From an uncultured Clostridia bacterium (GTDB taxonomy: Bacteria > Bacillota > Clostridia > Christensenellales > CAG-314): a stretch of DNA of 64,000 nucleotides. The notes below the pieces were generated by a model that had not been told where the DNA came from, did not search any database, and was given only the letters and a program-made list of their open reading frames with translations. The first letter of the stretch is position 1. The number at the start of each line of letters is the position of its first letter. Positions 8,581 through 25,505 of this stretch are shown here, piece after piece. The translations under genes were made by a program, and so were the position numbers. The DNA lies in the NCBI GenBank assembly GCA_947570215.1, contig CANOTO010000004.1, positions 92,522 through 156,521 of the forward strand, in the 5' to 3' direction.

Positions 8581-8635
8581 ACTGTTAAACGTCAAATCGG
8601 GAATTTCGGGGGTACGTTTGGGGGTATTCCATACG

Positions 8636-9841: not shown

Positions 9842-9918
9842 AGTTACATTTCTCCTTGTGTATTATTCCACTTGCGTGGTAACACAGAGTATAGCGACTA
9901 TGAACGTTTTTTCAAGGG

Positions 9919-10251
9919 CTAATTCTTTGCGCCATCCACAAGGAAACGGGCGTAATTGATAAGCCCTTTCTGCGCTTCCGACCCAAGTTTGCTGCCGATT
10001 TCTTCGTACAGCATTAGCAGTTCTTCTTTGTCGGGTGTAAGCTCGTAGTTTGATACGCCAAATTCTTCATCTTCCGTTGTGGGTAGCTGCATAGCAACTA
10101 ATATTTTATTTAATGTATCAATTCTAGGGTACTTGACGTAGCCACAAAAAACATTGGTAATTGTGGATCGTTCGAGTTTAGTTAATCTTGCTAAATCATC
10201 GTAGGTTAAATGTAGTTCTTTTTTTCGTTTCTTTAATTGTTCCAAATCCAT
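9919..10251 (-). CDS. XRE-family helix-turn-helix repressor (cI-like)
   Basis: HTH segment LTYDDLARLTKLERSTITNV. GGAG lies 8 nt upstream of ATG 10251. The longer ORF-track start at 10314 lacks an RBS. Confidence 0.8.
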   Translation of the reverse strand: MDLEQLKKRKKELHLTYDDLARLTKLERSTITNVFCGYVKYPRIDTLNKILVAMQLPTTEDEEFGVSNYELTPDKEELLMLYEEIGSKLGSEAQKGLINYARFLVDGAKN

Positions 10252-10307
10252 ATTCAACGCTCCATATTGCAATAGTACCAAAATATAGACTTTTTGCAAA
10301 AAAACGC

Positions 10308-10347
10308 TTGACAAAGTCCCTACGATTAGACTATATTGAAAATAGTC
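10308..10347 (+). promoter_or_regulatory. Rightward early promoter with an overlapping palindromic operator
   Basis: TTGACA (10308-10313), 18-nt spacer, TATATT (10332-10337). A 19-bp imperfect palindrome GACTATATTGAAAATAGTC (10329-10347) covers the -10 box. Confidence 0.55.
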
Positions 10348-10506
10348 CCAAAAATGGGGTAAAAATAGCCTTGAAGTCTGCGGAATTCAAGTTTTGCAAA
10401 AGTATTCAATTTCTTGGTCGATTTTGATTATATCAAACTATTCCGCAAACTTCAAGCAGTTTACCCAATTATGGGAATATTTATCTGAAATAGGGAGCGC
10501 GAAACT

Positions 10507-10962
10507 ATGGACGAAAAGAAAGAATACACATTCAAAGTCCCTGCGGAGATTTTTTACACCAACGAAGGGACTTTATCTATTAGCATTAAAATATTAGCCA
10601 ACGACAGCAGTGTTCTCAAACGGATTCTCGCAGGCAAAACAATCGACGACAATAAGAGTTGTTTTGGAATGTACGTCCGCAACGACATAAATACGTTATG
10701 GCAAACTTTTGTTATGTTCAGCGGAATGTTTACTTTTACGGAAACGCCGCAACGTACCAAAGAAGAAATTACCGCCGAAGCGCTGGAACTTGCCGTGTTG
10801 CGGCTTTTGGATAAAGACGACGACCTTTGCGCCGTATGCGCAAGGCGTGAAGCTTGCACCAAAGAATCGAACGAACAGGGCGAAGCATTTAATAAGCCTA
10901 AGTGTAGCGTTTGCGTGGAGAACGTTAGCCGGTACTTTATGGAGCAAGCGAAAAACGATTAG
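10507..10962 (+). CDS. Hypothetical protein with a C-terminal CxxC...CxxC cluster
   Basis: 151-aa ORF with RBS-like GGGAG upstream. First gene of the rightward operon. No family recognised. Confidence 0.6.
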   Translation: MDEKKEYTFKVPAEIFYTNEGTLSISIKILANDSSVLKRILAGKTIDDNKSCFGMYVRNDINTLWQTFVMFSGMFTFTETPQRTKEEITAEALELAVLRLLDKDDDLCAVCARREACTKESNEQGEAFNKPKCSVCVENVSRYFMEQAKND

Positions 10963-10970
10963 CAGGTTTC

Positions 10971-11000
10971 GTACGCTGTACCTAACAGCGTACATCAATA
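10971..11000 (+). repeat. Hairpin plus conserved tail, copy 1
   Basis: 9-bp stem GTACGCTGT/ACAGCGTAC. The tail TAACAGCGTACATCAATA is repeated at 11348-11365 with 1 mismatch. Confidence 0.6.
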
Positions 11001-11025
11001 ATCAAAAAGTAAAAGGGGATAGTTT

Positions 11026-11316
11026 ATGAATGAAATTGTAGTTGAAGGTAAGATTGATTATTTAGACGTATGTAATGAGCACTATAATTGTACTTTTCGT
11101 GCTGTTCTACAGAAGAGCAAATCTTTTTGCTGTGGTTATAAAACTTTTGTAACTATTACTTATGGCTTAACGGTACACGGTTATCTTTGTAAGCCTGATT
11201 ATATCGATATAACCTACGACCGTTCTATCAGAATTACGGAAGAAGATTTCAAAGATTGGTTGTGCAACTATTTCAACTTGACTTTATCTGAACACGATTT
11301 AACTTTTTTCAATTAA
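11026..11316 (+). CDS. Hypothetical protein (96 aa)
   Basis: ORF with AAAGGGGA RBS. No family recognised. Confidence 0.55.
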   Translation: MNEIVVEGKIDYLDVCNEHYNCTFRAVLQKSKSFCCGYKTFVTITYGLTVHGYLCKPDYIDITYDRSIRITEEDFKDWLCNYFNLTLSEHDLTFFN

Positions 11317-11334
11317 CGTTTGTTTTTACTGTTC

Positions 11335-11365
11335 GTACGTTGTCGGTTAACAGCGTACACCAATA
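11335..11365 (+). repeat. Hairpin plus conserved tail, copy 2
   Basis: 9-bp stem GTACGTTGT/ACAGCGTAC (one G:U pair), followed by ACCAATA. Confidence 0.6.
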
Positions 11366-11743
11366 GAGTTTGGCATAGAACGGATAACTCTAAATATGTT
11401 TTCTTCTCCAAAGCGTCGTAGGTCGGCGACGATAAACAAACGGCTCGTTGCAGTTCTCAGTCTCGACAATCAGAACTGTATAATCAAAACTTGGTCGTGT
11501 AAGACGGTTAGCGGTGTCGTCCGGAAACATTACCGCCCCAAGGTAGATTGGCGACCTATATACAACAGCCATTATCAGCCTTGCGATAAGGGACAGGGCA
11601 GGTGTGTTGTGCGTTTTCCTAAAACAAACGTACACCGTTTGTTGGCGGCAAAGAACGGTTGCGCGGATGCAGCGCTATATAAAAGGCAACGAAGTTCGCG
11701 CCGGGAGAGCCGCCACTCCCGAACACGCGCGAAGCGGTGAAAA

Positions 11744-12268
11744 ATGGGTTACAGAATATTAGCAGTTTTAATAATTGCACTTGTGTTAATAGTCGTCTTC
11801 GTAATTCGGAGAACTGTAAAGAAAAAGCGCAAAGATGAAAAAGGCAGGATATATAAGACGACTGACGGATATTTAGCGGATAATCCTAAAAATAAGAAAA
11901 AGCGCAACGTAGTAGTCGTAGAGCAGCGCAAAAAGGACGGAGCGATAGCGGTTAGCAAGATATTCGGCGCAGATGAAAAATCGGGAGATTTTTATATTGA
12001 CGATTTAGAACTGAAACCGAGTGAACATAGTTCATTGACAAAGAATTCTCTTGTAGAACGGCGTGTGAAGTTTGGCGTTAAACGTAACGGTAGGCATACG
12101 CCAATTTATATTAGAGATTTGAAACCAACAAACGACAAACTCACAAAAAAGGAAATGCGGAAAGTCAATAAACAAAAAGGCGGAAAGACTGTAAAAAATA
12201 GGCGGACGTATAGAAGTACACGCAGTAATTGGAAGCAAGGGTTCAAGAATAAAAACAAAAGAAAATAA
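11744..12268 (+). CDS. Hypothetical N-terminally membrane-anchored, very lysine-rich protein
   Basis: One TM helix (ILAVLIIALVLIVVFVI) followed by a K/R-rich sequence to the C-terminus. Confidence 0.6.
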   Translation: MGYRILAVLIIALVLIVVFVIRRTVKKKRKDEKGRIYKTTDGYLADNPKNKKKRNVVVVEQRKKDGAIAVSKIFGADEKSGDFYIDDLELKPSEHSSLTKNSLVERRVKFGVKRNGRHTPIYIRDLKPTNDKLTKKEMRKVNKQKGGKTVKNRRTYRSTRSNWKQGFKNKNKRK

Positions 12269-12340
12269 AAAAAAAAACCGAGTCGGCTGTGAAGCAAGAC
12301 TCGGGGTGGGACATTCCGGAAATGCCCCTGCTTAATTGGC
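12267..12340 (-). ncRNA. Candidate ~70-nt small RNA, convergent with the upstream gene
   Basis: Minus-strand promoter (see next feature). Terminator with 7-bp plus 3-bp stem (12278-12304) and a U11 tail (12267-12277). No credible ORF. Confidence 0.5.
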
Positions 12341-12346
12341 AATTAT

Positions 12347-12375
12347 AGTATATGCCAATTTGAGCAAAAAGTCAA
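12347..12375 (-). promoter_or_regulatory. Near-consensus sigma-A promoter on the minus strand
   Basis: TTGACT (complement of 12370-12375), 17-nt spacer, TATACT (complement of 12347-12352), with an overlapping TATAAT. Confidence 0.55.
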
Positions 12376-12418
12376 CACTATTTTGAGAATTCATATAAGC
12401 AAATTTTAGGGGTGCGAA

Positions 12419-12664
12419 ATGAGAGCGGAACAGGTCGGGCAAATTATCGAAACGGAAGCGCAGAAGCCTAAAATAGGCAAAGTCGTTTATTACGGCGTAT
12501 GTAGCGTTTGCGGCGAGAAAATAGACGTTTCCAACAAGTTGGAATTTAATCAAAAAGAGTATTACGCAGACAACTTCGGTATTGAAAAAGTAGGCGACAA
12601 ATGGGTTTGCAAACAAGAAATACGGCTACAAAACTGCCCGTTTTGCGAGAAACCGCCGTTTTGA
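12419..12664 (+). CDS. Small zinc-ribbon-like protein (CxxC ... CxxC)
   Basis: 81-aa ORF with AGGGG RBS and two CxxC pairs (CSVC, CPFC). Confidence 0.55.
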   Translation: MRAEQVGQIIETEAQKPKIGKVVYYGVCSVCGEKIDVSNKLEFNQKEYYADNFGIEKVGDKWVCKQEIRLQNCPFCEKPPF

Positions 12665-12734
12665 GCGGTAAATTTGTCGGTTCGGTAAGTTATAAAGGCG
12701 GCAAACCGTTGGAATTTAAGGGAGTGTTCACACA

Positions 12735-12908
12735 ATGGCAAAATGCGAAATTTGTTGTAATGAATGTAATGGCGAAATTAAAATCGCAGCGTATAATCAC
12801 AGCGCAATAATTTGCGGTAAGTGCGCCGTAGATAAAGAAATAATAACAGACCCCGAAATAGTAAAAATAATCTGCAAAGCGGAAGGCTTTGAAAAGTTGC
12901 GGCAATGA
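12735..12908 (+). CDS. Small Cys-rich protein (57 aa, below the ORF-track cutoff)
   Basis: AAGGGAG RBS 10 nt upstream. Sequence MAKCEICCNECNGE...CGKC. Confidence 0.45.
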   Translation: MAKCEICCNECNGEIKIAAYNHSAIICGKCAVDKEIITDPEIVKIICKAEGFEKLRQ

Positions 12909-13072
12909 AAAAGTTTACTTTTGTTTATCAGCCGATTAGCGGCGGTTCGGATTCCGTAACGCTTTACGCAAAGAATTACGGTATTGCTATCAATAGATTC
13001 AAACACCAATATAAGTATTTGAAAATAATAAAAATTGTAAAGGAGAAAAAAGAAAATGGCAAAGAAGAATAA
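12905..13072 (+). CDS. Possible small protein (55 aa), ATGA-coupled to the previous ORF
   Basis: Open frame MKKFTFVYQPISGG.... No separate RBS. Overlaps the next gene start. Confidence 0.3.
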   Translation: MKKFTFVYQPISGGSDSVTLYAKNYGIAINRFKHQYKYLKIIKIVKEKKENGKEE

Positions 13073-14162
13073 TTCACGTTCTGCAATGGGGGGGGGCGTA
13101 ATAGTTCTCTCATTGTTGTTGCTTGCAGCAATTATATGCGGAGCGATAACTCACGGGTTTACAACGTGGACAACGTGCGGCTGCTTCGGACATAAGTACG
13201 GCGACGACGGCGTTTGCGTACGCTGCAAGGAAGCAAAGCCTACGGAGAAAACTGACGGCGCAGTCGTAGACAACGACGGCAACGTAATGGATTCCGACAA
13301 GGTTTACGCAATGCCTACGGGTATGACGTTTTCATCGGCAAAGCAACTCAACGCCGAGCCGTCCGAAGAAACTGAAAAGAGCGTAACCATAACGGCGACA
13401 ATCGAACCTGCCGACGCTACTAACAAAAACGTTGACTGGTCGGTTGCGTTCGTAAACGCAGACAGTACTTGGGCAAGCGGTAAGACCGTAACGGACTATA
13501 TAACGGTAACGCCGACTTCCGACGGTTCGCTTACTGCAACGGTAACCTGTAAACAAGCGTTCGGCGAGCAAATAGTCGTGCAATGCGTAGCGCAGGATAA
13601 CGCCGAAGCTTCGGCAAGTTGTACGGTAGATTATAGAAGGCGTGTTGAAAACGTAGCTGTTTCTATTGACGGTTTTATGAGCGGCGGTTTCGTTTCGGGT
13701 TCTATAAGTTTGTATACGGACAATGCCCCTACGAAAAACGTTTCTCGGCACGTAACTTACTCCGTAGGAACTGTCGGCGGCGACGAAGAAGTAATTATCG
13801 AATACAAGTTGGGCGATATAATTTACAGCCAAATGTCAGCGCATTTTTGTATGGGACACGATTGGAATACCTGTAAAGACGTTAATCACTTGTATTACCA
13901 ACTAAACCAAGACTGGCACCAAATAGGAAATACATTAACGACGGATATTTCGTTCTTAGAACCGATGTTCAAGTTTGTTCCTACAAATTACACGTCTGCA
14001 CTTAATAGTGCAAGAATAATTTTCAAAAATACTGTCGGCGCAATCGTATTTAGAATAACCTGCGGAGATTGGACGAAAGAATTATCGTTCCAGACCACCG
14101 TAGAAAACTTCAAAATATCCGTAACGAACGTTACGTTAAATCAAGGAACGTTAGAGTTTTAG
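13056..14162 (+). CDS. N-terminally anchored surface protein with a bacterial Ig-like (Big_2-like) domain
   Basis: AAGGAG RBS and a TM helix VIVLSLLLLAAIICGAI. The segment TATIEPADATNKNVDWSV...TVTPTSDGSLTATV resembles Big_2. A G9 tract lies at 13088-13096. Confidence 0.7.
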   Translation: MAKKNNSRSAMGGGVIVLSLLLLAAIICGAITHGFTTWTTCGCFGHKYGDDGVCVRCKEAKPTEKTDGAVVDNDGNVMDSDKVYAMPTGMTFSSAKQLNAEPSEETEKSVTITATIEPADATNKNVDWSVAFVNADSTWASGKTVTDYITVTPTSDGSLTATVTCKQAFGEQIVVQCVAQDNAEASASCTVDYRRRVENVAVSIDGFMSGGFVSGSISLYTDNAPTKNVSRHVTYSVGTVGGDEEVIIEYKLGDIIYSQMSAHFCMGHDWNTCKDVNHLYYQLNQDWHQIGNTLTTDISFLEPMFKFVPTNYTSALNSARIIFKNTVGAIVFRITCGDWTKELSFQTTVENFKISVTNVTLNQGTLEF

Positions 14163-14293
14163 ACGGCAATAAATGTACTTCTTTTAGTATTGCCGCTAAA
14201 ACGAACAAAATGCTTTTAGCGGCGATACGCCGTAAAAGTGCGTAATCGGGACACGGTACGCATATAGCCCCGAAACGGGGGAAGGAGTACATA

Positions 14294-15598
14294 ATGAGCA
14301 AAAATAAAACAAAGAGTAACAGAAGCAATGCAACGTTGTACGTCGTTCTCGTAATCGTGCTGATTGCAGTAATAGTTGGCGGAGTAATAACGCACGGCTT
14401 CCAAGATTGGACGGAACAACCGCGAGCGTATGTTTCGGATAAAATACTTTCTTCGGCGCAGCTACTCAGCTCAGACGGCAAGTCTGTTTCTGCAGGATAC
14501 CGTCCCTTGAAAGTCGGGGACGAAATGTCTAAGATTGCATACTTCGCAATCGACGTATACGGCAAAGCGCGCAATGAAATAGATTCTTTCAAACTATTTT
14601 CGTCAGGCGATGAAACAATAACAATCTTCCTATGGGAACGTTATCAAGGCGAATACAGTTTCGGAATAATAAACGGAACGTTGGCAGATAATTTTCCGCA
14701 TCTTGACGAAGATAATTTATCTCAATTAAGCAGTGCCGTATGGGGAACTTTCGAAGACTACCGAATTGATGAACATAATCCATATTTAGATTTGTATATT
14801 GGCGACCTTGATGCTCGCGAAATAAATTACGGTTATACTGTTGACAATATAGGAACTCTGCCTATTTACGTTCAAACCGTACTAACAGAATTGCCGCCCG
14901 CTCCTGCGAAAACGGGATATACGTTTACAGGTTGGTATACGGATGAAGACTGTACACAGTTGTATACGGAAGACTTTGTTAATTCGGATATTACGCTGTA
15001 CGCAGGCTTCCAAGCTAATTCGTACAGCATTAAGTTCAACGCCAACAGCGGCAGCGGAACTATGGCAAACGAAGCTATGACGTACGACCAAAGCAAGGCG
15101 CTTACTGCCAACGGTTTTACCAAGGAACACTACCAATTCAAGGGTTGGGCTACGTCTGCCGACGGCGAAGTCGTATACGCAAACAATGCCGAAGTCAAGA
15201 ACCTTACGGCAACCGACGGCGCGGTAATTGAGCTCTTTGCAGTTTGGGAACGTTCGGAAGTTTCCGTTACATTCGTATCCGAAGGAAATACGGTAGCTAC
15301 AACTTGGATAGCGATAGGCACAAAGGCGACGTTACCTAAAACGCCCGTTAAGGAAGGACACCTGTTCAACGGTTGGTACTACGAAGACGGTACCAAGTAC
15401 GAAACGCAGAATATATCCGAAGACATTACGCTTACGGCAAAGTTCAGTATTATCCGCTGCACCGTTACGTTCATAGTAGACGGCGAAGTTTATGCGGTAT
15501 ACGTCTGCGACTGGGGTACTTCCATTGCGCAAGCGTTGAACGGCGCGGGCGTTAACACTGCACTGTACAAGGCGGATGAGCATAGCCGAAATTTTTAG
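14294..15598 (+). CDS. N-terminally anchored surface protein with three Listeria-Bacteroides-type (Flg_new-like) repeats
   Basis: GGAAGGAG RBS and a TM helix LYVVLVIVLIAVIVGGVI. Repeats GYTFTGWYTDED, HYQFKGWATSADG and GHLFNGWYYEDG. Confidence 0.75.
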   Translation: MSKNKTKSNRSNATLYVVLVIVLIAVIVGGVITHGFQDWTEQPRAYVSDKILSSAQLLSSDGKSVSAGYRPLKVGDEMSKIAYFAIDVYGKARNEIDSFKLFSSGDETITIFLWERYQGEYSFGIINGTLADNFPHLDEDNLSQLSSAVWGTFEDYRIDEHNPYLDLYIGDLDAREINYGYTVDNIGTLPIYVQTVLTELPPAPAKTGYTFTGWYTDEDCTQLYTEDFVNSDITLYAGFQANSYSIKFNANSGSGTMANEAMTYDQSKALTANGFTKEHYQFKGWATSADGEVVYANNAEVKNLTATDGAVIELFAVWERSEVSVTFVSEGNTVATTWIAIGTKATLPKTPVKEGHLFNGWYYEDGTKYETQNISEDITLTAKFSIIRCTVTFIVDGEVYAVYVCDWGTSIAQALNGAGVNTALYKADEHSRNF

Positions 15599-15626
15599 TT
15601 AGGCAAGACTTGACTGTAAGTCTTGC
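15589..15626 (+). promoter_or_regulatory. Candidate -1 programmed ribosomal frameshift signal
   Basis: Slippery heptamer A_AAT_TTT (15589-15595) in the zero frame, just before stop TAG (15596-15598). A 7-nt spacer follows, then a 9-bp stem GCAAGACTT/AAGTCTTGC (15603-15626). Confidence 0.55.
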
Positions 15627-15759
15627 AAAAACTTGGCTCGGCGAACGGCTTACTGAAACTCAGTTTTGGTGGGCAGTTGCAGGAGCGTGTGTAGGAATAG
15701 TTTTTCTTTTGTCCGTAGTACTTGGCGCAGTAATTACAAAGAAAAGGAGTAAAAGATGA
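15595..15759 (+). CDS. -1 frame extension (54 aa) encoding a TM helix plus a basic tail; alternatively an independent TTG-initiated 49-aa ORF from 15610
   Basis: Open -1 frame LVRQDLTVSLAKTWLGERLTETQFWWAVAGACVGIVFLLSVVLGAVITKKRSKR. It ends in ATGA overlap with the next gene. Confidence 0.45.
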   Translation, partial: LVRQDLTVSLAKTWLGERLTETQFWWAVAGACVGIVFLLSVVLGAVITKKRSKR

Positions 15760-16325
15760 AAAAAGTATTAGCATTTTGGGGCGTAGTCTTAATATTAGCG
15801 TTAATCGCGGGCGTTGTGTATTTCGTCTACGTCTTTACGGGAGAGTTCTCGACGGACTTCAAAACTTTCTACGTTGAGATAGACAAAACCAAGTACGTCA
15901 AAGATACGTACGACTTAACGTTTGGCAAAACGCGTGTGGACGTGCATTACACCTTTGAGAAAGTGCAGACGAAGAAGTTGACGTTTACATACGCAATAGA
16001 GCCGACGGGCAGCGACTTCAATTTTACAGTGGACGGCGAGAAAGTAAGTTGGCTGAATGTCGACGGACTTTCCGAAGCGTTTGACGTAAAAAAGGACGCC
16101 GACGCTTTAACGCTCGATTGCACAAATAAAAAGGTATCCGACGTATTGAAAGCAGTTTATCCAAACAGCGATATAGTATTACCGGACGGAATAGACGAAG
16201 AACGGATAAGTCGTTACAAGCTTACAGTTACGTCAGAAGATAAACGCATAAGCGTGTCGTTAACGTTCAAATGTTCGGCAGCTATTGAAAACATTGTTCT
16301 CGACCCGTCCGAGATTACGTTTTAG
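15756..16325 (+). CDS. Hypothetical N-terminally anchored or secreted protein (189 aa)
   Basis: AAAGGAG RBS and an N-terminal hydrophobic segment VLAFWGVVLILALIAGVVYFVYVF. Confidence 0.65.
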   Translation: MKKVLAFWGVVLILALIAGVVYFVYVFTGEFSTDFKTFYVEIDKTKYVKDTYDLTFGKTRVDVHYTFEKVQTKKLTFTYAIEPTGSDFNFTVDGEKVSWLNVDGLSEAFDVKKDADALTLDCTNKKVSDVLKAVYPNSDIVLPDGIDEERISRYKLTVTSEDKRISVSLTFKCSAAIENIVLDPSEITF

Positions 16326-16338
16326 GAGAAGTGAAGTT

Positions 16339-18135
16339 ATGAAGAAATTGACTTTAATATTAACAATGGTATTGATAGTATCGGCAATAGGCGGTGGAAG
16401 TATCAACGCCTTTGCGGCTACAAACAACATTGACGCGAGCGACGTTTTGTTTGATTTGCAAAACAGTCAGATTGCCGGCGAAAACTTTAACGTAGACGAA
16501 TACGGATACTCTGACGAAAAAGACGTTAAGCTGCTTGCATTTGCGGAATACGGTTTTGCGTTCGATAAATCTAAAAGCGACTATAACATTTATCTTTATG
16601 TTTATAACCCAAGCGGACGGGAGATAAAAGCGGAGCGTAACGTTGTAAGTATTGCGACCGTTTACGAAAACGGCAAAGCGGTAGACTACGATAAGTTTGC
16701 GCTTAAACTGTTGAGCGTATCGGACGGCAAATACGCGCGGCTCTTTTACAAATTCAAAGTAAAAGACCCGACTAAACTGTTTACTCGCGTATCCGCCAAC
16801 ACTAACGTTAGGCGATACGACGTAAGCGAAATAGAGCTGAACTTCGGCGACGTCAGTAGCAAAGCGTATACGGTAGGTAACTACTATGAATATAGTGGCT
16901 ATGCGCAAGGGTTTGGCGCGGACAGCAAAGCGGAAAGTACACTGACTTGTACGACGGACAATATTGATACCTTGGAATTAAAAGTTAAAAGTACGTATTA
17001 CAGATATAACAATGGAACGTCTACGCAAAAAGATATATCCAGCGTTTACTTCGGAATACCCAATGAAATTTTTACAAAGTACGGAAATTTGCAACAAATA
17101 AAAGCAAACTGGTTTGAAACGAAAACAATGCCGCAGTATGTTTTTACAAATCAAAACTTGTACAGAAATCTCTATCCGTATTTAGGGGTCAATAAGAAAA
17201 ATCAAGTCGTACCGCTTCCCGAAGTAGACGGACACCGTTTTTTTGATATTTGCGTCGGCGCAGGTCCGGGCGTAGCTAAATATGCTTTCAAATTCGGAGA
17301 GTACGATAGTAAATACGACGGCGTAGTCGGATTGGGTACGTATTATTTCAATCAACTGGACTGGATGTTTTACAGTAAAAACGGAAAAGTATCTTCTACG
17401 GAAGTCATACACGAAGCTCAGAATTATACGTCTAAAATAGGCGGCGAATTGCTAATAGATAAGTACAGCAAAAACCTATTCGTTGCAGAAGTGGACGACG
17501 GACGGCAGTACGGTTGGCAAGGTACGGACGGAAACGGCATTGTTATCGACGCAGATAGCACGTTTAATATCGACGGATTTGACGCGGGCAGTAAGTTTAT
17601 GACATGGTTTACACAGGTTTGTTACGGCAAATTAGAAACAAACGAGCTGTCTATAACTCCCATTTACTTAGTCGAAGAAAACGACGTTATAGGGAATGCA
17701 GAAACAATCGCGCAAAGATTATACATAGAAGAAAGCGACGTAACGGAGTTTTTGCAAACATATGAACAAAATAAAGTTGAAGGTAAGAGAACTGTACTTT
17801 TTCGCTTCGCTACAACCGATTATACAGCGTATCCACTTTGGGCGCGTTGTGAGAAAGCATTTCATTGTGGAATAAATAGTGAAGTGGGGTACGGTGCGCA
17901 GCAAACTGTTTTCTTGGATTTTGACATAATATGGCTGAAATTCTTAAAAGCGGGACAAGCTACGGTAATACCCTGCGTATCCAGTCCGATAGACGTATTT
18001 CACGGTTTAACTCCGCCTTTGCAGCCGAGCGGCAGCAATATTTGGGTAATAATACTTACTGTTATCATCTGCGTAATAATGCTTATTTTGGTTTTTAAGC
18101 TATTAGGTGTAGTGCTGAAAAAACGGAGTAACTAA
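16339..18135 (+). CDS. Large secreted protein with a signal peptide and a C-terminal TM anchor (pIII-like topology)
   Basis: AGGAGAAG RBS and signal peptide MKKLTLILTMVLIVSAIGGGSINAFA. The C-terminus is IWVIILTVIICVIMLILVFKLLGVVLKKRSN. The ORF-track start at 16285 lacks an RBS. Confidence 0.7.
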   Translation: MKKLTLILTMVLIVSAIGGGSINAFAATNNIDASDVLFDLQNSQIAGENFNVDEYGYSDEKDVKLLAFAEYGFAFDKSKSDYNIYLYVYNPSGREIKAERNVVSIATVYENGKAVDYDKFALKLLSVSDGKYARLFYKFKVKDPTKLFTRVSANTNVRRYDVSEIELNFGDVSSKAYTVGNYYEYSGYAQGFGADSKAESTLTCTTDNIDTLELKVKSTYYRYNNGTSTQKDISSVYFGIPNEIFTKYGNLQQIKANWFETKTMPQYVFTNQNLYRNLYPYLGVNKKNQVVPLPEVDGHRFFDICVGAGPGVAKYAFKFGEYDSKYDGVVGLGTYYFNQLDWMFYSKNGKVSSTEVIHEAQNYTSKIGGELLIDKYSKNLFVAEVDDGRQYGWQGTDGNGIVIDADSTFNIDGFDAGSKFMTWFTQVCYGKLETNELSITPIYLVEENDVIGNAETIAQRLYIEESDVTEFLQTYEQNKVEGKRTVLFRFATTDYTAYPLWARCEKAFHCGINSEVGYGAQQTVFLDFDIIWLKFLKAGQATVIPCVSSPIDVFHGLTPPLQPSGSNIWVIILTVIICVIMLILVFKLLGVVLKKRSN

Positions 18136-18263
18136 TGAAAATTTTGAAATTTATCGGCGCAATCTTGCTTGCGCTGCTTGCAGGCGGAATAATCTTGCAA
18201 GTACTCGGATATATCGACAGTCCGCTATTCAACTGGTTTAGCGAACTGCACTTGTTTAAGTAG
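18135..18263 (+). CDS. Small hydrophobic protein (42 aa)
   Basis: GGAG RBS. Sequence MKILKFIGAILLALLAGGIILQVLGY.... The start overlaps the upstream stop (TAATG). Confidence 0.5.
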   Translation: MKILKFIGAILLALLAGGIILQVLGYIDSPLFNWFSELHLFK

Positions 18264-18271
18264 GTGAACAT

Positions 18272-18430
18272 ATGGGTTGGGTTTTAATACTGGTATTAGG
18301 ACTTATTGCATTATCTGTAACAATAGGTGGCGGAATCAACACAGATTTTTTAACCTTACTTGCAATTTTTGCCGTTGGTATAGTCGTAATCTTTGCCATA
18401 AAAAAGATATGGGACGAGTTTCATAAATGA
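18272..18430 (+). CDS. Small two-TM protein (52 aa)
   Basis: AGGTGA RBS. Sequence MGWVLILVLGLIALSVTIGGG...LLAIFAVGIVVIFAIKK. ATGA overlap with the next gene. Confidence 0.5.
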   Translation: MGWVLILVLGLIALSVTIGGGINTDFLTLLAIFAVGIVVIFAIKKIWDEFHK

Positions 18431-19713
18431 AAACTATAAAAAAGCACTTGGCGTTGAACTATCTATATTACGCTTTGCCGTGCATATTGAGCGTAGCGTA
18501 TTTGTTATTATTTGCCGCAGATTATACGACGTTGCAGTATTTAATAAACAGTTTGTACGCCAATTTATTCAACTTAATAATGCTGTCTTGCGCAATCGTA
18601 GCCGTCCCGAACTTTTGCCGTTTGGTATATTATACCAAACTTACGCTAAATTTGCCTAACGACGCATATTTGCCTGCAGCGGCAAACGAACGTTTCGGGT
18701 TCGCAGGCGGCGGCAAGTCGTCCAGTACGGCAATTCAAGCGTTTTTTGAAGCGGAAAAAATGCAGGAAGAAACGGAAGGGAAGTACAATTATATGCTTGC
18801 CAACCGTGAACGTTGGACAAGGGACGGGGAAGAATACAAACTCGCTAACTTTGACCGAATAGAGAAGTCTGTTGAGTTTTGGAACGCGCACCCCGAGTAT
18901 ATTCCGTATTTGGTAAGCGATTTAGAGATTATAGCGCCGGACGGAAGAAAGTCGATGTTCTTTACCCGTGAGCATTTGGAGCAGGAAGAATGGCTACCAA
19001 TATGTTTCCTGTTGGCTGACGAAGGCGGTACGCTAATGCCGCAGGACGAATATTCAGACCGTCCGCAAAGAATGGTAACTTTTTTCCGTCTAATACGTCA
19101 GTTCGGAATACGCGCTTGTATATGCGAACAGAAGAAAGACGGAATACTAATAAACGTCAGGGCGGTTCTCGGCGGAACCGTGCTTTGTTTGGGACAGCGC
19201 AACGCTTTGCTTCCGAACTTGCTTTTATCCGTCATAGCCTTTCTCAAACGCTTGTTGCCTAAAACTAAAAACAATCCGAAATTAGGCTTGGTGATAGAAA
19301 AATTAAGCAACTTTGCCGCTTGTTTGGGCTTTCGTATATGGGACCAGTTATTTTTCAGAACAATGGACTTCAAAGAGTTTGTGCCGCCTGAAAAAATTAA
19401 AATCGTTTGCACGAATAAGTTACCGTTCTATTACGACGATATGGCATACGCAGACTTATATCTTGCAAAGGATAAAACGCCGAAAATAATAGAGCAGAAA
19501 GGACGACCGACAAAGGGTACGCCGATGGGCGACGCAATGCTTAGATTGTGTACAATCGAAGAACAGAATTTGAAAGACAAAGAAGAAGTAAAGTTGCACA
19601 GTAAATTGAAAGTAAGCAACGGTATTAAATCTGAAACGCTGAAACAATTCGATTTGGACAAAAAGTTAGAACAGCAGAAAAAGGCGCAAAACGACGGCGC
19701 AAAAAAATCTTAA
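18427..19713 (+). CDS. Membrane-anchored P-loop NTPase (Zot/pI-like assembly ATPase or FtsK/TcpA-like translocase candidate)
   Basis: Two N-terminal TM helices, Walker A GFAGGGKS (aa 91-98), Walker B FLLADE (aa 194-199) and a charged coiled C-terminus. Confidence 0.65.
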   Translation: MKTIKKHLALNYLYYALPCILSVAYLLLFAADYTTLQYLINSLYANLFNLIMLSCAIVAVPNFCRLVYYTKLTLNLPNDAYLPAAANERFGFAGGGKSSSTAIQAFFEAEKMQEETEGKYNYMLANRERWTRDGEEYKLANFDRIEKSVEFWNAHPEYIPYLVSDLEIIAPDGRKSMFFTREHLEQEEWLPICFLLADEGGTLMPQDEYSDRPQRMVTFFRLIRQFGIRACICEQKKDGILINVRAVLGGTVLCLGQRNALLPNLLLSVIAFLKRLLPKTKNNPKLGLVIEKLSNFAACLGFRIWDQLFFRTMDFKEFVPPEKIKIVCTNKLPFYYDDMAYADLYLAKDKTPKIIEQKGRPTKGTPMGDAMLRLCTIEEQNLKDKEEVKLHSKLKVSNGIKSETLKQFDLDKKLEQQKKAQNDGAKKS

Positions 19714-20121
19714 TAACGAAAGACACTGCGGCGGCAAACCGATACGTACTGCTTCGCTTATAAGTTCAACTCGCAGAGTTAGTTGGGAATTGGAAAAGCA
19801 TATTGAATATGTAGTTGCAAGGTTATATTTAGGAATCGACAATGCAAAAGGCAAAAACATTAACGACGACACGAAATAATATTTTTCGTTCCAACTGGTT
19901 GGGACGGAAAATTTATTCGGGGCGGCGTTACGTGTTGTGGTTGCATTATCGAAAAAGAAACTTGCAACGACAAAACAAATCGCTTTTCCAATTCCAAACT
20001 TCACGATTGAGCGAAAAGTTACGTTTCGGTAAAGACTTGGTAAAGAGAAAAACCGCATAAAACGTAAAAAAGGGGGTTGCGGGGGCTTGCCCCCGACGTT
20101 CGGAAAAAAGTTTGGTACCAA

Positions 20122-20391
20122 ATGGGAAGATTAGTTCTAACAAGATTTAACAAAAGAACTTGTAAGGTTGAGCAGCTGACATTGGAAAACGTAAATTTAT
20201 CTGCACACTATATTGACAATTTCGGCAGACCTACAACGCTGATTCACTTAATTGCAGATAACCCCGCATGCGTACAAAAAAGTTACATAATAACGGAAGT
20301 AACGGACGAACGATTAGTCGAAGGTATACATTACAACGCAAGCGAAGCAGCGCAAAAATGGTGGGATAAGTATGAAAAACAAGAAGAATGA
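20122..20391 (+). CDS. Hypothetical protein (89 aa)
   Basis: ORF from ATG 20122. The ORF-track TTG at 20077 lies inside a GC hairpin. Weak RBS. Confidence 0.45.
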   Translation: MGRLVLTRFNKRTCKVEQLTLENVNLSAHYIDNFGRPTTLIHLIADNPACVQKSYIITEVTDERLVEGIHYNASEAAQKWWDKYEKQEE

Positions 20392-20496
20392 AGTATTGCC
20401 GGGACAACTGTCAATCTGGGATAGTCCGTTCTATGACATTTTGATGGGGGGGGGTATCTCTAACAGAAAATACGGAACAGGGGGAAGTTAAAGACG

Positions 20497-20694
20497 ATGA
20501 AAGTAAGGTTAATGGGAACGAAACGGGAATGCGAAATAATGCAAGATTTCTTTCGGAAGAATTTACAGAACGGTAACGGTTATTCTGTGTCAAGGCTTTA
20601 TTCGAATAGGGGCAGTACGGATATGTATCGGGTGTACGTCGAATTTAATATGCCTTCCGATACTTCAAATTTTTTGCAACTAAAAGGCGGCTGA
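20497..20694 (+). CDS. Hypothetical protein (65 aa)
   Basis: ORF with G-rich RBS. No family recognised. Confidence 0.5.
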   Translation: MKVRLMGTKRECEIMQDFFRKNLQNGNGYSVSRLYSNRGSTDMYRVYVEFNMPSDTSNFLQLKGG

Positions 20695-20696
20695 AA

Positions 20697-20864
20697 ATGA
20701 CGAAGAAGTATGTGCAAGTGAAAATAAATATTCCGACGTCTTATAGAAGCGTAATCGAGTATTGCGACAAACTGTCTACGCAGCGTATACTTTCTGCTCG
20801 CATTATCCGATTACTTTCGGACGACTTAAACAAAAGAAAAAAGGAAGAAAATACGAATGTTTAA
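20697..20864 (+). CDS. Small hypothetical protein (55 aa), overlaps the methyltransferase start
   Basis: MTKKYVQVKINIPTSYRSVIEYCDK.... 8-nt overlap with the next gene. Below the ORF-track cutoff. Confidence 0.4.
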   Translation: MTKKYVQVKINIPTSYRSVIEYCDKLSTQRILSARIIRLLSDDLNKRKKEENTNV

Positions 20865-22728
20865 TTACCAAAGCAGCATATTGGACGAACTAATAGTAGA
20901 CAACTTCGCCGGGGGCGGCGGAGCAAGCACGGGTATAGAACTCGCAGTCGGGCGTCCCGTAGATATAGCGATCAACCACGACCCCGACGCAATCGCCATG
21001 CACAAGGTAAACCACCCGTTTACGAAGCATTACCAAGAGAGCGTTTGGGATATAGACCCCAAAAGAATTACCGAAGGGCGACCAGTCGGCATTGCGTGGT
21101 TTTCTCCCGACTGTAAACATTTCAGTAAAGCAAAGGGCGGAAAGCCCGTAGACAAGAAGATAAGGGGCTTAGCGTGGATAGCGTTGCGTTGGGCAGGAAC
21201 TGTCAGACCGAGAATAATTATGCTCGAAAACGTCGAAGAGTTCCAAACGTGGGGACCGGTTAGACGTGGTAAGCCTGTTAAGAGCAAGCAGGGGCAGACG
21301 TTCCGCAAGTTTGTAGGCCAACTCGAAGCGTTAGGCTATAAGGTAGAGTATAAAGTCTTGCGGGCTTGCGATTACGGAGCGCCTACGATTCGCAAACGGT
21401 TTTACTTAATAGCCCGTTGCGATGGGCTGCATATCGTCTGGGCGGAGCCTACGCACGGCGAAGGCAGAAAGCCGTATCGGACGGCTGCGGAGTGTATAGA
21501 CTGGTCGTTACCCTGTCCGTCCATATTCGGACGTAAAAAGGAACTTGCCGTTAATACGCAGCGGCGTATAGCAAAAGGTTTAGACAAGTTCGTAATAAAG
21601 AACCCGAAGCCGTTTATTATGCAAATGAACTTCGAGAACGCAGCGCAAGACGTAGACAAGCCGTTATCTACTCAGACGGCTGTAAACAAACATTTCGTTG
21701 TAGAACCGAAGTTCACGCCGTACATAATGAGCAATAATACGAATAACGCCACGCACTCGGTAAAAGAACCGTTGCCGACAGTTACTACTGGCAACCGCAA
21801 TTTCGTCTGCGCTCCGACGTTGGTACAGTACCACACGGAAACAAGCGCAAAAGAAACTCGTGGGCAGGACGTAAAGCAGCCGCTCCGAACGGTAGACGGT
21901 TCGCCGAGATACGGTTTGCAAGCGGCGTATTTATCCAAATATTTCAGCGGCGAAAAGCAAGCGGGCGCAGACGTACAAAGCCCAATGCCTACGGTTACGG
22001 GAATAGACCATAACGCTGTAACGGTTTGCTATCTATCCAGCAGACATGGCGACGGAAGCGACGGCAGGGGTAAAGACTTAGCCGAACCTGCGCCGACTGT
22101 TACGGCAGACTGCCACGAACATATTATTGCGGCTAACTTACTGCGTTATTATGGTGGCGAAGAACATGCAAGCGATATGGATAAGCCGATAGCAACCGTT
22201 ACAACGTTGCCAAGACATTATTTGTCTGAAAGCCACCTATGCGTATTCCAAAATCATATGGACTGCAAAGGCTTGGACGAGTCATTTCCGACGATTACAC
22301 AGGCGTTGAAGTTCGGGCAAGTCAAGACGTATCTGTGCAAAATAGATTCCGCGCAGAACTTAGGCAACTGGGATAAAGTAAGATGTCTGCTAAACGAATA
22401 TGCAGGTTATTCGATTGCCGACGATGAAATACTTATACTCGAAATAAACAAGGTGCAGTACTTCATTTACGACGTGGGAATGCGAATGTTAAAGGCAAAG
22501 GAACTAAAACTTGCACAAGGCTTCCCGACAGATTACTGTATCGACATAGAAAGCAAAATAGGCAAGAAATACAGCGAAGCAAAACAAATCGCGCGGCTCG
22601 GCAATGCGGTTTGTCCGCCGGTTGCTACGGCGTTGGTAAAAGCGAATTACATAGACACAGTAGCTAAGCCGCTCGTAACAATGGCTGCACTGAATGAACA
22701 TTTACAAAGACGTATGGCGAAGAGATAA
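20857..22728 (+). CDS. DNA (cytosine-5)-methyltransferase with an expanded repeat region
   Basis: Motif I FAGGGG, catalytic SPDCKHFS, motif VI ENV, QGFP and GNAVCPPV. Seven ~35-aa P-x-x-T-V/I-T modules lie between motifs VIII and IX. Confidence 0.88.
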   Translation: MFNYQSSILDELIVDNFAGGGGASTGIELAVGRPVDIAINHDPDAIAMHKVNHPFTKHYQESVWDIDPKRITEGRPVGIAWFSPDCKHFSKAKGGKPVDKKIRGLAWIALRWAGTVRPRIIMLENVEEFQTWGPVRRGKPVKSKQGQTFRKFVGQLEALGYKVEYKVLRACDYGAPTIRKRFYLIARCDGLHIVWAEPTHGEGRKPYRTAAECIDWSLPCPSIFGRKKELAVNTQRRIAKGLDKFVIKNPKPFIMQMNFENAAQDVDKPLSTQTAVNKHFVVEPKFTPYIMSNNTNNATHSVKEPLPTVTTGNRNFVCAPTLVQYHTETSAKETRGQDVKQPLRTVDGSPRYGLQAAYLSKYFSGEKQAGADVQSPMPTVTGIDHNAVTVCYLSSRHGDGSDGRGKDLAEPAPTVTADCHEHIIAANLLRYYGGEEHASDMDKPIATVTTLPRHYLSESHLCVFQNHMDCKGLDESFPTITQALKFGQVKTYLCKIDSAQNLGNWDKVRCLLNEYAGYSIADDEILILEINKVQYFIYDVGMRMLKAKELKLAQGFPTDYCIDIESKIGKKYSEAKQIARLGNAVCPPVATALVKANYIDTVAKPLVTMAALNEHLQRRMAKR

Positions 22729-22738
22729 AGAAATTGAA

Positions 22739-23608
22739 ATGAGTAAACCGCATTATCAGACAAGTTTTTTAATACTGGATAAAATCGAAAAAGCGGTGGA
22801 ACGCGTGCAGTTGATTAAAAACGTTATAAGCGAACCGCTATGGGTAGCTTATAGTGGCGGCAAAGATAGCGTTGTATTGAAGTGGATAATAGAGCAAAGC
22901 GGCATTCCTGCCGAATTCCACTATAATGTTACAAGCGTTGACCCGCCTGAATTAGTGCAATTTGTTAAGTCGCAGAAAAATATTAAACGAGATATACCGC
23001 ATTATGATAATGGTTCGCCGATGTCAATGTGGAATCTGATACCAAACAAAATGATACCGCCTACACGTGTATTTCGTTACTGTTGTGAAAAGTTAAAAGA
23101 AGCGAGTGGTAAAGGAAGAATAACGGCAACGGGAGTTCGTTGGGCGGAAAGCCCTAAAAGAAAGAAAAATCAAGGTGAAATAACTGTATTTCGCAAAAGA
23201 GAAATTGCAAAGTTATTAAAACTCTTTCCGGAAGCCGAAGCATTAGATACAGAACGGGGCGGATACATTTTGAATTTAGATAACGATAGCAACCGACGTA
23301 TGGTTGAGCAGTGTTATAGAACGAGCAAAACGTTAATCAATCCAATTATAGACTTTTCTACAAGTGATATTTGGCAGATTATAGGCGGCGAACATTTAGA
23401 TTATTGCGGACTTTATGACTGCGGATATAAACGTTTGGGTTGCATCGGTTGTCCAATGGCTTCTATAAAACAGCGTAAACAAGATTTTTTGCGTTATCCG
23501 CAGTATAAAGAGTTCTACATAAATGCTTTTGATAAAATGTTGCTTCGTTTAACAAAAGCACAATGGAAGAGCGGCGAAGAAGTTTTTGACTGGTGGGTGA
23601 AAATATAA
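22739..23608 (+). CDS. PP-loop ATP pyrophosphatase of the PAPS-reductase/DndC-like family
   Basis: SGGKDS PP-loop (VAYSGGKDSVV) and a C-terminal Cys cluster CGLYDCGYKRLGCIGCP. Alternative start at 22694. Confidence 0.8.
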   Translation: MSKPHYQTSFLILDKIEKAVERVQLIKNVISEPLWVAYSGGKDSVVLKWIIEQSGIPAEFHYNVTSVDPPELVQFVKSQKNIKRDIPHYDNGSPMSMWNLIPNKMIPPTRVFRYCCEKLKEASGKGRITATGVRWAESPKRKKNQGEITVFRKREIAKLLKLFPEAEALDTERGGYILNLDNDSNRRMVEQCYRTSKTLINPIIDFSTSDIWQIIGGEHLDYCGLYDCGYKRLGCIGCPMASIKQRKQDFLRYPQYKEFYINAFDKMLLRLTKAQWKSGEEVFDWWVKI

Positions 23609-23609
23609 A

Positions 23610-23924
23610 ATGAAAATCTACACAATCGACAATCACGACGGACATATTAAAAATTGTCAAATTAAAGATATGTTAGAAATGGCGTTACCTGAAGGAACCG
23701 ACACGGCGAATATGACGGACGAAGCGATTATTCAGAAAGCAACGTGGGTGCAGATATGTGGCGCAGATACAGAACGTTGTCCGAATTGCAAATATTATAG
23801 CCATTATAACGGAAAAGAGTATTGCAGCGTAATGCACTTGCCAAAAGCGCAGTTGTTACCGCCTGAATTTAAGAAATATGGTTGTTGTTTCTACGTGGGC
23901 AGAAAAGGCGGGAAATTAGGATAA
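23610..23924 (+). CDS. Cys-rich hypothetical protein (104 aa)
   Basis: CPNC...C...CC pattern. Tightly packed between the neighbouring genes with 1-nt gaps. Confidence 0.55.
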   Translation: MKIYTIDNHDGHIKNCQIKDMLEMALPEGTDTANMTDEAIIQKATWVQICGADTERCPNCKYYSHYNGKEYCSVMHLPKAQLLPPEFKKYGCCFYVGRKGGKLG

Positions 23925-23925
23925 A

Positions 23926-24654: not shown

Positions 24655-24801
24655 CTTAAAAAAAGTGCCGTTTTTGCAAAAAATAGGCATTTTAAGCAAA
24701 AAAATAAGCGGCAAAGCCAAACACTTTACCTCTATACAAAACGCCGATTGTAGGCGAACGATTTTAACAATTTAACGACCGAATAAGGAAGTTTTTACAA
24801 A

Positions 24802-24963
24802 ATGAGCGCGAAATCTGAAAAATGGAAAAGAGAAAACGCTTTTTATCTGTCCGACAAGTGTAGAATAGCGTTAAATAAGAAATGTCTAAACTGTACGAAC
24901 GTTTGCAAGCAATCTCGCAGAGCTTTGTTGGTTGCTTGTCCTGATTACATTAAAAAGGAGTAG
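24802..24963 (+). CDS. Small Cys-containing protein (53 aa)
   Basis: AAGGAAG RBS. Sequence MSAKSEKWKRENAFYLSDKCRIALNKKCLNCTNVCKQ.... Below the ORF-track cutoff. Confidence 0.4.
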   Translation: MSAKSEKWKRENAFYLSDKCRIALNKKCLNCTNVCKQSRRALLVACPDYIKKE

Positions 24964-25396: not shown

Positions 25397-25505
25397 TTGG
25401 CAAGTGGTAAAGTCGTCTTTTGACTTTTCCACTTGTCAATACGTTTTGTGGTAAACTGCTTAACGGCTAAATAGCGGAATCGGCTCGGAAGCAGTTTTCC
25501 ACAAA
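25397..25505. repeat. Two adjacent long hairpins sharing a GTGG-T-AAA / TTT-T-CCAC core
   Basis: Hairpin 1 spans 25397-25439 (18 paired positions, including 1 T:T mismatch and 1 G:U pair). Hairpin 2 spans 25445-25505 (about 16 bp, the same T:T mismatch, 28-nt loop). Confidence 0.7.

Follow-up and report, generated by a model that had tools for sequence, protein, structure and literature searches.

A probable inovirus-like prophage of a divergent lineage at a tRNA-Gly gene of an uncultured Clostridia bacterium

The hallmark of filamentous phages (inoviruses; Tubulavirales, realm Efunaviria) is a coat protein together with an ATPase; their replication modules are freely exchanged and sometimes absent, and some plectroviruses have no dedicated replication initiator (Rep) (PMC13595969). 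The morphogenesis ATPase (pI/Zot) is the only marker that is conserved across inoviruses (PMC6813254, PMC13595969). Among Gram-positive gut anaerobes, filamentous phages have been demonstrated only recently (PMC10061712), and their detection rests on pI profile models. The inovirus prophages of Enterocloster and Hungatella are integrated, flanked by direct repeats, and mostly 6.5-8.5 kb in size, with one of 16 kb, and inoviruses of this kind are secreted by gut Clostridia (Burckhardt et al. 2023, PMC10061712). Here I describe an element of about 17.3 kb in a 64,000-nucleotide stretch of DNA (the window; positions 92,522 to 156,521 of contig CANOTO010000004.1, assembly GCA_947570215.1) from an uncultured Clostridia bacterium. 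The element is probably an integrated temperate filamentous-phage-like (inovirus-like) prophage of a new, highly divergent lineage. To judge from its gene content, the plus-strand operon most likely contains the genes for morphogenesis of a Tubulavirales-like virus, a divergent one whose hosts are Gram-positive Clostridia. Because inovirus prophages of gut Clostridia have a precedent (PMC10061712), the element is not ranked as a new category.

How does this locus compare with the described systems? Like the Ff phage M13, it has a co-oriented operon with overlapping junctions, in which a large protein with a signal peptide and a C-terminal anchor, small hydrophobic proteins, and an ATPase are encoded. 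Unlike M13, it has no pII, pV, or pIV, it is almost three times larger, and none of its proteins resembles pIII, pVI, or pVIII in sequence or fold. In addition, the ATPase domain of M13 pI is N-terminal and is followed by the transmembrane (TM) segment, whereas this order is reversed in the window protein. The ORF2 ATPase of the plectrovirus SpV1-R8A2B (Plectroviridae) has the same architecture as the window protein, namely N-terminal TM helices followed by the P-loop, and shares with it the Walker A, Walker B, and RHFG...(T/C)EQ-like motifs. The hosts on both sides derive from Firmicutes and lack an outer membrane, so that a secretin is absent. However, no other gene is detectably shared with SpV1, which is 8.3 kb long and has a transposase, whereas the window element, at 17.3 kb, has a tyrosine integrase and sits in a tRNA gene. 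The Enterocloster and Hungatella prophages and Propionibacterium phage B5 resemble the element in their Gram-positive hosts and in having a pI homologue among mostly unannotated small open reading frames (ORFs). Compared by description, those prophages were found with standard pI hidden Markov models (HMMs), whereas the window ATPase escapes Pfam Zot; ORF8 of phage B5 is unmatched by the profile of the window ATPase family.

A mobile element at a tRNA-Gly gene

The island occupies positions 8474-25794 of the window and is bounded by att repeats at tRNA-Gly(GCC). This tRNA gene (8424-8498) was called by both ARAGORN and Rfam, and the direct repeats at 8474-8501 and 25769-25796 are identical at 27 of 28 positions. 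Between the att repeats lie a minus-strand integrase gene and an XRE repressor gene, followed by a long plus-strand operon that comprises all other genes of the island (Table 1). Eight tRNA genes (Gly, Arg, His, Gln, Lys, Lys, Leu, Gly) are clustered at 7640-8498, directly upstream of the island, and the last of them is the tRNA-Gly gene used for integration.

Syntenic elements were found in Logan, ENA, JGI, and NCBI assemblies (L001, L002, L004-L008, L014, L016, L017, and L023-L028), which represent metagenome-assembled genomes (MAGs) of uncultured Clostridia and Christensenellaceae. Their sizes range from 11 to 17 kb, and they use other tRNA-type att sites. Two of them have att duplications of their own: in L006, 11 kb lie between copies of a 33-nt tRNA 3' end, and in L001, 16.9 kb lie between copies of a 25-nt repeat. 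The host genes next to these relatives are different in every genome, and close relatives are present in only four of about 185,000 species representatives. A scan of JGI metagenomes for relatives yielded only a contig that was already known. Public sequencing runs with close relatives include SRR29185115, SRR22319443, ERR14656754, and SRR31482506.

Is the cluster an ordinary, immobile chromosomal locus for the export of surface proteins? The original prediction had named this as one finding that would overturn it, and the cluster does encode a membrane ATPase and a number of anchored surface proteins. In all loci examined, however, the module lies inside integrase- or Rep-bearing mobile elements and never at a fixed chromosomal position. 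The precise duplications of tRNA 3' ends that bound the element together with its integrase, the flanking genes that vary by genome, and the rarity of close relatives among the species representatives all speak against such a locus. Given the att sites and the changing genomic surroundings, a fixed export locus is as good as refuted, and I regard it as having next to no probability.

The structural module and its ATPase

The module ends with the gene for a P-loop nucleoside triphosphatase (NTPase) that had been predicted to be membrane-bound and to occupy the position of pI/Zot. Hydropathy analysis supports two N-terminal TM helices. The Walker A and Walker B motifs are GFAGGGKSS and FLLADEGG, and residues G94, G96, K97, D198, and E199 do not vary among 19 homologues. 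When the proposed profile-HMM comparison was made, the likeness to pI/Zot held at the level of the family, but not for the window protein itself. A word-indexed search retrieved 21 close homologues and two proteins of about 30% identity that carry Pfam Zot. The Zot scores are 14-15 bits for the relatives P0013 and P0020 and 29-31 bits for P0022 and P0023 (31.2 bits for P0022 against a cut-off of 20.3). By an exhaustive profile search the family was extended to 239 clusters at 50% identity. Pfam Zot was matched by 19 of 83 diverse members (best E 5e-9), while no other family was matched by more than two of the 83. A second word-indexed search with a diverse alignment added one new protein only, P0122.

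The family profiles were also searched against 1,431 sequences, comprising 48 proteins of M13, B5, Pf3, Pf1, and SpV1-R8A2B and 1,383 decoy ORFs. For both profiles, the two best non-family matches were SpV1 ORF2 (a weak match of 21.9 bits with compositional bias) and M13 pI. In a profile alignment by hhalign, the family matched M13 pI with a probability of 75% (E 2.4e-5) over the Walker B region and the following R-H-x-G...Q motif. I assign the NTPase to the pI/Zot superfamily, as a divergent branch of plectrovirus-type architecture; this assignment is transitive and made over a limited region.

Coupling proteins of conjugation also have N-terminal TM helices followed by a P-loop. The architecture of the NTPase would thus also suit a non-viral integrative element, in which the ATPase is a DNA translocase and surface adhesins pair the cells for a particle-free transfer from cell to cell. 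The variable surface proteins with Big_2 domains or Listeria-Bacteroides repeats resemble adhesins, PcfJ/PcfK-type plasmid genes adjoin the elements of a sister clade (see below), the Rep_1 and G2P-type Reps of related elements occur on rolling-circle plasmids too, and the coat proteins are candidates. However, the models for FtsK_SpoIIIE, T4SS-DNA_transf/TraG/VirD4, and TrwB were matched by none of the 83 family members (E <= 0.01), as against the 19 that match Zot. No relaxase, VirB4, or transfer gene was found among the scanned window ORFs, and the order of a large anchored protein, tiny TM proteins, and an ATPase is that of the filamentous phages M13 and B5. I consider particle-free transfer unlikely.

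The genes upstream of the NTPase show the style of inoviruses as defined by Roux et al. (PMC6813254): they are short, mostly uncharacterised, and co-oriented, and their junctions overlap. In addition, a protein with a signal peptide and a C-terminal anchor is encoded before the ATPase. The predicted junctions are present in the sequence. The ATG at 15756 overlaps the stop codon of the preceding ORF (ATGA), the 598-aa stop and the 42-aa start share TAATG at 18133-18137, and the ATG at 18427 overlaps the stop codon of the 52-aa ORF (ATGA). Good Shine-Dalgarno sequences precede most of the module ORFs (15756-19713). The described topologies were also reproduced by Kyte-Doolittle hydropathy: the 189-aa ORF is real and its product has an N-terminal anchor, the two tiny hydrophobic proteins of 42 and 52 aa have one and two TM segments, respectively, and the 598-aa protein has a signal-peptide helix, a C-terminal TM anchor, and a basic tail, as is also seen in its AlphaFold model. 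No secretin-like domain was found in any Pfam scan, as had been expected.

Which of these genes form the core? Nearly all close relatives keep the 598-, 42-, and 52-aa proteins, the NTPase, and the 55-aa and 53-aa Cys-rich proteins encoded downstream. The 189-aa protein, the 368-aa type, three small proteins (two with CxxC), and the 151-aa product of the first gene are usually conserved too. The variable parts are the 434-aa Listeria-Bacteroides-repeat protein or its Big_2 replacements and the cargo of methyltransferases and a PAPS reductase.

The 598-aa protein begins at an ATG with a good ribosome-binding site. A signal-peptidase site (AFA|A) was read from its sequence, and the TM helix comprises residues 568-597, followed by the basic tail. 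An AlphaFold model based on a 54-sequence alignment (pLDDT 89.4, pTM 0.85) is beta-rich between the signal peptide and the TM helix. Foldseek searches of PDB and BFVD gave no fold match (best E about 0.04, TM score below 0.12), and tblastn against the INPHARED phage genomes found nothing. Thus, the proposed likeness to pIII holds for topology and position, but in sequence and fold the protein matches nothing known. Its family comprises at least 194 clusters at 90% identity from Clostridia MAGs, one with 1,030 members, and all are unannotated.

In pleolipoviruses, a small membrane protein, a spike with a signal peptide and a C-terminal anchor, small TM proteins, and an NTPase are encoded in this order, which the module also fits. 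The element might then be a virus of a new non-filamentous morphotype, membrane-containing or pleomorphic like pleolipoviruses and plasmaviruses, with the 598-aa protein as the spike, the small TM proteins as internal membrane proteins, and the ATPase loading the DNA. The unmatched fold of the 598-aa protein, the size of 17 kb with methyltransferases for double-stranded DNA, which suit a double-stranded genome, and the presence of a very basic membrane-tethered protein are in line with this. On the other hand, the only detectable relatives of the ATPase are Zot/pI proteins of filamentous phages, Foldseek against BFVD gave no match of the 598-aa model to a spike of the pleolipovirus or plasmavirus kind, and related clades carry rolling-circle Reps typical of single-stranded DNA elements. 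Such a virus would also have to bud through a Gram-positive wall, for which no precedent is known. A non-filamentous virus is therefore quite improbable in my estimation.

Under the filamentous-phage reading, the small proteins are coat candidates. Both the 42-aa and the 52-aa protein fall within the range of size and TM content that Roux et al. give for inovirus coat proteins, 30-90 aa with 1-2 TM domains (PMC6813254). Pfam and PHROG scans revealed no likeness to a known coat protein. The 42-aa protein carries MKxLK at its N-terminus and GYIDSPLFxWFTE as a conserved tail, and a similar protein occurs in the sister clade; it is a candidate minor or tip protein. In the 52-aa protein, GGGIN lies between the two hydrophobic segments, and the tail is KK(I/L)(W/Y)D-x-F-x-K (KKIWDEFHK in the window). 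It is the best candidate for the major coat protein, provided that its first segment is removed as a leader; the mature protein would then be predicted to have an acidic N-terminus, a TM segment, and a basic C-terminus. No capsid, portal, terminase, or tail protein was matched in library scans of the element's proteins.

The module had also been described as starting at 15595 with a TM segment of about 50 aa and a basic tail. The TM segment and the tail were confirmed, but neither the start nor the core status was: the codon at 15595 is TTA, and the TAG at 15596-15598 is the stop codon of the upstream 434-aa gene. The sole possible start is a TTG at 15610, which leaves 49 aa. No counterpart of this ORF turned up in any of eight related elements. 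The closest of them is L014, whose homologues of the 174-, 368-, and 189-aa proteins are 83-90% identical. Since the only start is TTG and a counterpart is lacking in related elements, the ORF is, by this comparison, either spurious or specific to the window, and it is no core coat gene. As a major coat protein it was dropped for want of conservation.

Replication genes and a conserved non-coding region

Rep genes are found in more distant relatives of the module. The NTPase relative P0122 is encoded in a compact element (L019) that carries both Rep_1 and a tyrosine integrase. The order is a Flg_new surface protein with a C-terminal anchor, a 275-aa protein with a signal peptide and a C-terminal anchor, a 54-aa protein with two TM segments, the NTPase, Rep_1 (51.6 bits, with an HPHFH motif), and the integrase. 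A sister clade (L022, L029, L030, and L032, the last being IMG/VR UViG_3300027374_000002) has homologues of the 368-, 189-, and 598-aa proteins at 24-34% identity (29-34% for the 598-like members). As in the window, a small TM protein comes after these three, and then a large membrane protein. The latter is a multi-TM protein of about 700 aa with a P-loop-like motif. The gene for a REP_ORF2-G2P Rep follows directly (41 bits against a cut-off of 27.8; HUH-type, with the motifs FVTFTY, HFHGIF, and YIVKY), whereas the window clade has no Rep, and the 52-aa gene was not seen in the sister clade. Where Rep follows the NTPase in relatives, the window has four small ORFs (20077-20864). Thus, as far as sequence comparison goes, the same structural module is coupled to replication initiators of the single-stranded DNA type in related elements.

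In two independent contigs, L022 (6837-9175) and L030 (12278-14539), genes for PcfJ, PcfK, and a MutS_I-domain protein adjoin the elements on the opposite strand. Genes of the PcfJ/PcfK type are typical of conjugative plasmids, and the sister-clade elements may be part of larger conjugative elements or lie next to them.

Is the window element, then, a defective or satellite derivative that has lost its Rep and is either a domesticated surface-protein island or dependent on a helper? No Rep was found in the close relatives examined, while sister clades have one right after the ATPase, and L001 has a truncated duplicate of the 368-aa gene. However, the core genes are intact at 40-88% identity in every locus that covers their positions, and the non-coding element described below is better conserved still, which argues for continued selection on the whole machine. 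Different att sites are occupied, and therefore the elements still move. A decayed or helper-dependent island is accordingly a rather remote alternative.

The original prediction pointed to a hairpin-rich non-coding region (24964-25767) as a possible origin and packaging region. The stretch 24964-25768 is indeed real, strongly conserved, and structured. Its core of about 350 nt (24973-25320) shows 74-90% nucleotide identity in all related loci and is better conserved than the neighbouring proteins; in L004 it is 90% identical, as against 53% at the amino-acid level for the NTPase. RNAalifold predicts hairpins in the core, with 95% paired cells by pair counting. Nine compensatory pairs were observed against 5.1 +/- 1.3 in shuffles, of which one in 500 reached this number, and slid controls gave at most three. 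Five of the covarying pairs belong to the hairpin at 25136-25174. Several invariant G-U pairs on the plus strand indicate that this is the functional strand, as RNA or as plus single-stranded DNA. Rfam has no family for either of the two conserved non-coding regions. An intergenic stretch at 11317-11743 is likewise partly conserved in relatives. A role of the core as an origin, a packaging signal, or a small RNA fits these data without being proved by them, and the core may be a new structured RNA or single-strand origin.

A promoter-like sequence, TTCAAC-16 nt-TATAAA, lies inside the core at 25091-25118. The pattern G-C-G-x-x-G-x-TGCAGCGCTATA(T)AAA is common to 25098-25120 and to 11661-11683, upstream of the 174-aa gene, and the pair may mark a common promoter or regulator site. 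Just inside attR, the palindrome CACAATATATTGTG occurs twice (25692-25705 and 25725-25738), and its copies flank a strong promoter-like TTGATA-17 nt-TACAAT with an upstream TG (25684-25712). A similar sequence is present in L001. These palindromes could be operator or recombinase arm sites.

A tentative idea, more doubtful than probable, is that replication and packaging in the Rep-less lineage rely on the structured element at 24973-25320 instead of a rolling-circle nuclease, perhaps together with the small conserved proteins encoded at 20077-20864 and 24802-24963, which would have taken the place of Rep.

Several results weigh against a filamentous phage. The window NTPase alone has no significant match in Pfam, PHROGs, NCBIfam, PADLOC, or PDB sequences by single or profile searches; its best direct matches are at chance level (PHROG E 0.03, PDB E 0.029), and a tblastn search of 50,697 phage records likewise yielded nothing significant. 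Against PF05707 (Zot) it gave nothing at E <= 0.1, below the gathering threshold of 20.3 bits. Close relatives of the NTPase are found neither in IMG/VR, by protein- and DNA-pattern scans, nor in INPHARED, and the Zot match of the family is limited to some 60-70 residues around Walker B. AlphaFold gave a poor model of the NTPase (pLDDT 64, with a disordered P-loop region) and Foldseek against PDB found no fold match, so that no structural claim is made for this protein. The 598-aa protein shows no similarity to pIII or any other viral protein. No conserved protein has the canonical coat pattern (acidic N-terminus, TM segment, basic C-terminus) unless a cleavage is assumed, and the only ORF with the unmodified pattern is the non-conserved 49-aa ORF. 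Homology of the 700-aa sister-clade protein to the 428-aa NTPase is not established (hhalign probability 9%), terminal overlaps or a circular form were seen in none of the 17 contigs checked, and the element, with a size of 17.3 kb and three DNA-modification genes, falls at the upper end of the inovirus range.

Finally, no Rep of a known type was found in the window element or its close relatives by library scans, and tblastn with the Rep_1 and G2P-type Reps of relatives found nothing in the window or in any of the close loci. This absence had been counted against the model when it was proposed. It is borne out, but it weakens the model less than was feared, because relatives carry Rep_1 or G2P-type Reps and the replication module is treated as exchangeable in the literature.

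How would such a phage work? The XRE repressor would be relieved, and the integrase would excise the element from tRNA-Gly. The N-anchored 368-, 434-, and 189-aa proteins would enter the cytoplasmic membrane, together with the 598-aa protein, which has a signal peptide and is anchored at its C-terminus, and the two small proteins of 42 and 52 aa. The pI/Zot-like ATPase would extrude the DNA of the element across the membrane, and the small hydrophobic proteins would assemble round it. The large anchored proteins would reach the tip of the particle, where their variable ectodomains may recognise the host. In a monoderm host no secretin would be needed. The structured non-coding region beside attR is the best candidate for a cis-acting origin or packaging signal. 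The virion, its single-stranded DNA, the role of each protein, and the replication of the Rep-less clade are predictions of this scheme, whereas the boundaries and mobility of the element, the topologies, the remote pI/Zot link, the homology of the module to Rep-bearing elements, and the conservation and structure of the non-coding region are its observed basis.

Accessory genes and the place of the element among filamentous phages

Table 1. Features of the element, with positions in the window
Feature	Position	Strand	Remarks
attL	8474-8499	+	3' end of tRNA-Gly(GCC); left island boundary; pairs with attR
Tyrosine integrase, 401 aa	8636-9841	-	Pfam Phage_int_M and Phage_int_SAM_3 above cut-offs; syntenic in L001, L006, L008
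XRE/Cro-C1-type helix-turn-helix (HTH) repressor	9919-10314	-	Pfam HTH_26 above cut-off, HTH_3 just below; divergent from plus-strand operon
151-aa Cys-rich protein	10507-10962	+	First gene of the operon; conserved in L014, L001, L008, L004
174-aa protein	11744-12268	+	N-terminal TM helix, very basic remainder (50 K/R); homologues in L014, L004
Three small proteins, 81, 57, and 55 aa	12419-13072	+	Conserved in L014, L001, L008, L004
368-aa surface protein	13056-14162	+	N-terminal anchor (TM residues 7-38), variable ectodomain
434-aa N-anchored protein	14294-15598	+	Listeria-Bacteroides repeats (Pfam Flg_new, 5.9e-32); accessory surface protein
49-aa ORF, doubtful or window-specific	15610-15759	+	TTG start, weak ribosome-binding site; one TM, KKRSKR tail
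189-aa N-anchored core protein	15756-16325	+	Conserved in L014, L008, L001, L006 and in sister-clade L022, L032
598-aa core protein	16339-18135	+	Signal peptide, beta-rich ectodomain, C-terminal TM anchor; pIII position
42-aa single-TM core protein	18135-18263	+	Conserved in 9 of 9 loci covering the position
52-aa core protein	18272-18430	+	Two hydrophobic segments; conserved in eight loci
428-aa membrane-anchored P-loop NTPase	18427-19713	+	Probable divergent pI/Zot-family relative, plectrovirus-type architecture
Four small proteins, 104, 39, 65, and 55 aa	20077-20864	+	Conserved across relatives; located where related clades have Rep
Cargo: C5 DNA methyltransferase, PAPS-reductase-like protein, 104-aa Cys-rich protein, N6/N4 DNA methyltransferase	20857-24654	+	
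53-aa Cys-rich core protein	24802-24963	+	Directly upstream of non-coding region; conserved in L008, L014, L001, L004, L002, L017
Conserved non-coding region	24964-25768	+	Structured core 24973-25320; adjoins attR
attR	25769-25794	+	Duplicated tRNA-Gly 3' end; partner of attL repeat

Divergent sigma-70-like promoters (10308-10337 on the plus strand and 10455-10427 on the minus strand) lie between the repressor gene and the first gene of the operon. The 151-aa product of the latter has no match in Pfam, PHROG, or NCBIfam and no Rep motif, and is a candidate regulator or replication protein. The 174-aa protein consists of about 29% K/R with a single-TM tether, according to hydropathy and charge counts, and may be a membrane-tethered DNA-binding protein; one marginal PADLOC match to Csm3 was obtained (E 0.0018, 16 bits). 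Its homologue in L004 (9021-9563) is encoded between the 598-like gene and the 42-aa gene. At the corresponding position of L001 (3682-4167) there is a similarly basic protein with a C-terminal TM helix, and no sequence similarity to the 174-aa protein was detected. The 81- and 57-aa proteins have CxxC motifs, and neither they nor the neighbouring 55-aa protein matched a family in Pfam or NCBIfam scans. Pfam, PHROG, and NCBIfam scans likewise gave no significant match for the four small proteins downstream of the NTPase, the last of which (55 aa, 20697-20864) is the one kept in nearly all close relatives.

Homologues of the 368-aa protein are 36-83% identical, and one is also present in the sister clade. 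Big_2-domain proteins take the position of its gene in relatives, and the protein is a candidate for host recognition. The 434-aa protein occurs only in the window and L014; it is absent from L001, and Big_2 proteins substitute for it in relatives. The 368- and 434-aa proteins have a common N-terminal anchor region with ITHGF-x-(D/T)WT, to which the 368-aa type adds a Cys-rich CGCFGHKY...CVRCK motif, and their ectodomains are unrelated. Relatives exchange Big_2 or DUF6273 domains onto this anchor module, and the truncated duplicate in L001 (6921-7145) is a copy of the anchor module. This looks like a modular exchange of receptor-binding domains.

The cargo block is absent from the smaller (11-kb) relatives L006 and L002. 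Its PAPS-reductase-like protein has a BrxP-like domain, and no restriction enzyme is encoded in the block, which is probably anti-restriction cargo. Among the proteins scanned with PADLOC, significant matches were obtained only for the two methyltransferases and the PAPS-reductase domain. A defence system was ruled out, as none of the module proteins scanned significantly matches a PADLOC defence-system model.

What does the element mean for the filamentous phages of gut Clostridia? The lineage appears to have been missed by standard detection because its ATPase escapes Pfam Zot and PHROGs and its close relatives are absent from IMG/VR and INPHARED; the family profiles obtained here could extend inovirus detection. 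The large, unannotated 598-aa family with its unmatched fold points to a class of mobile elements that is common in gut Clostridia but has gone unrecognised. With its structured non-coding element, the Rep-less clade offers a concrete way into how such elements replicate or package their DNA. The replication strategy, the protein family with a novel fold, and the conserved structured element are the points most worth following. If the Rep-less lineage does work as tentatively proposed, it would represent a new way to generate or package a genome within the realm of filamentous phages, in an element built around a widespread envelope protein of an unseen fold.

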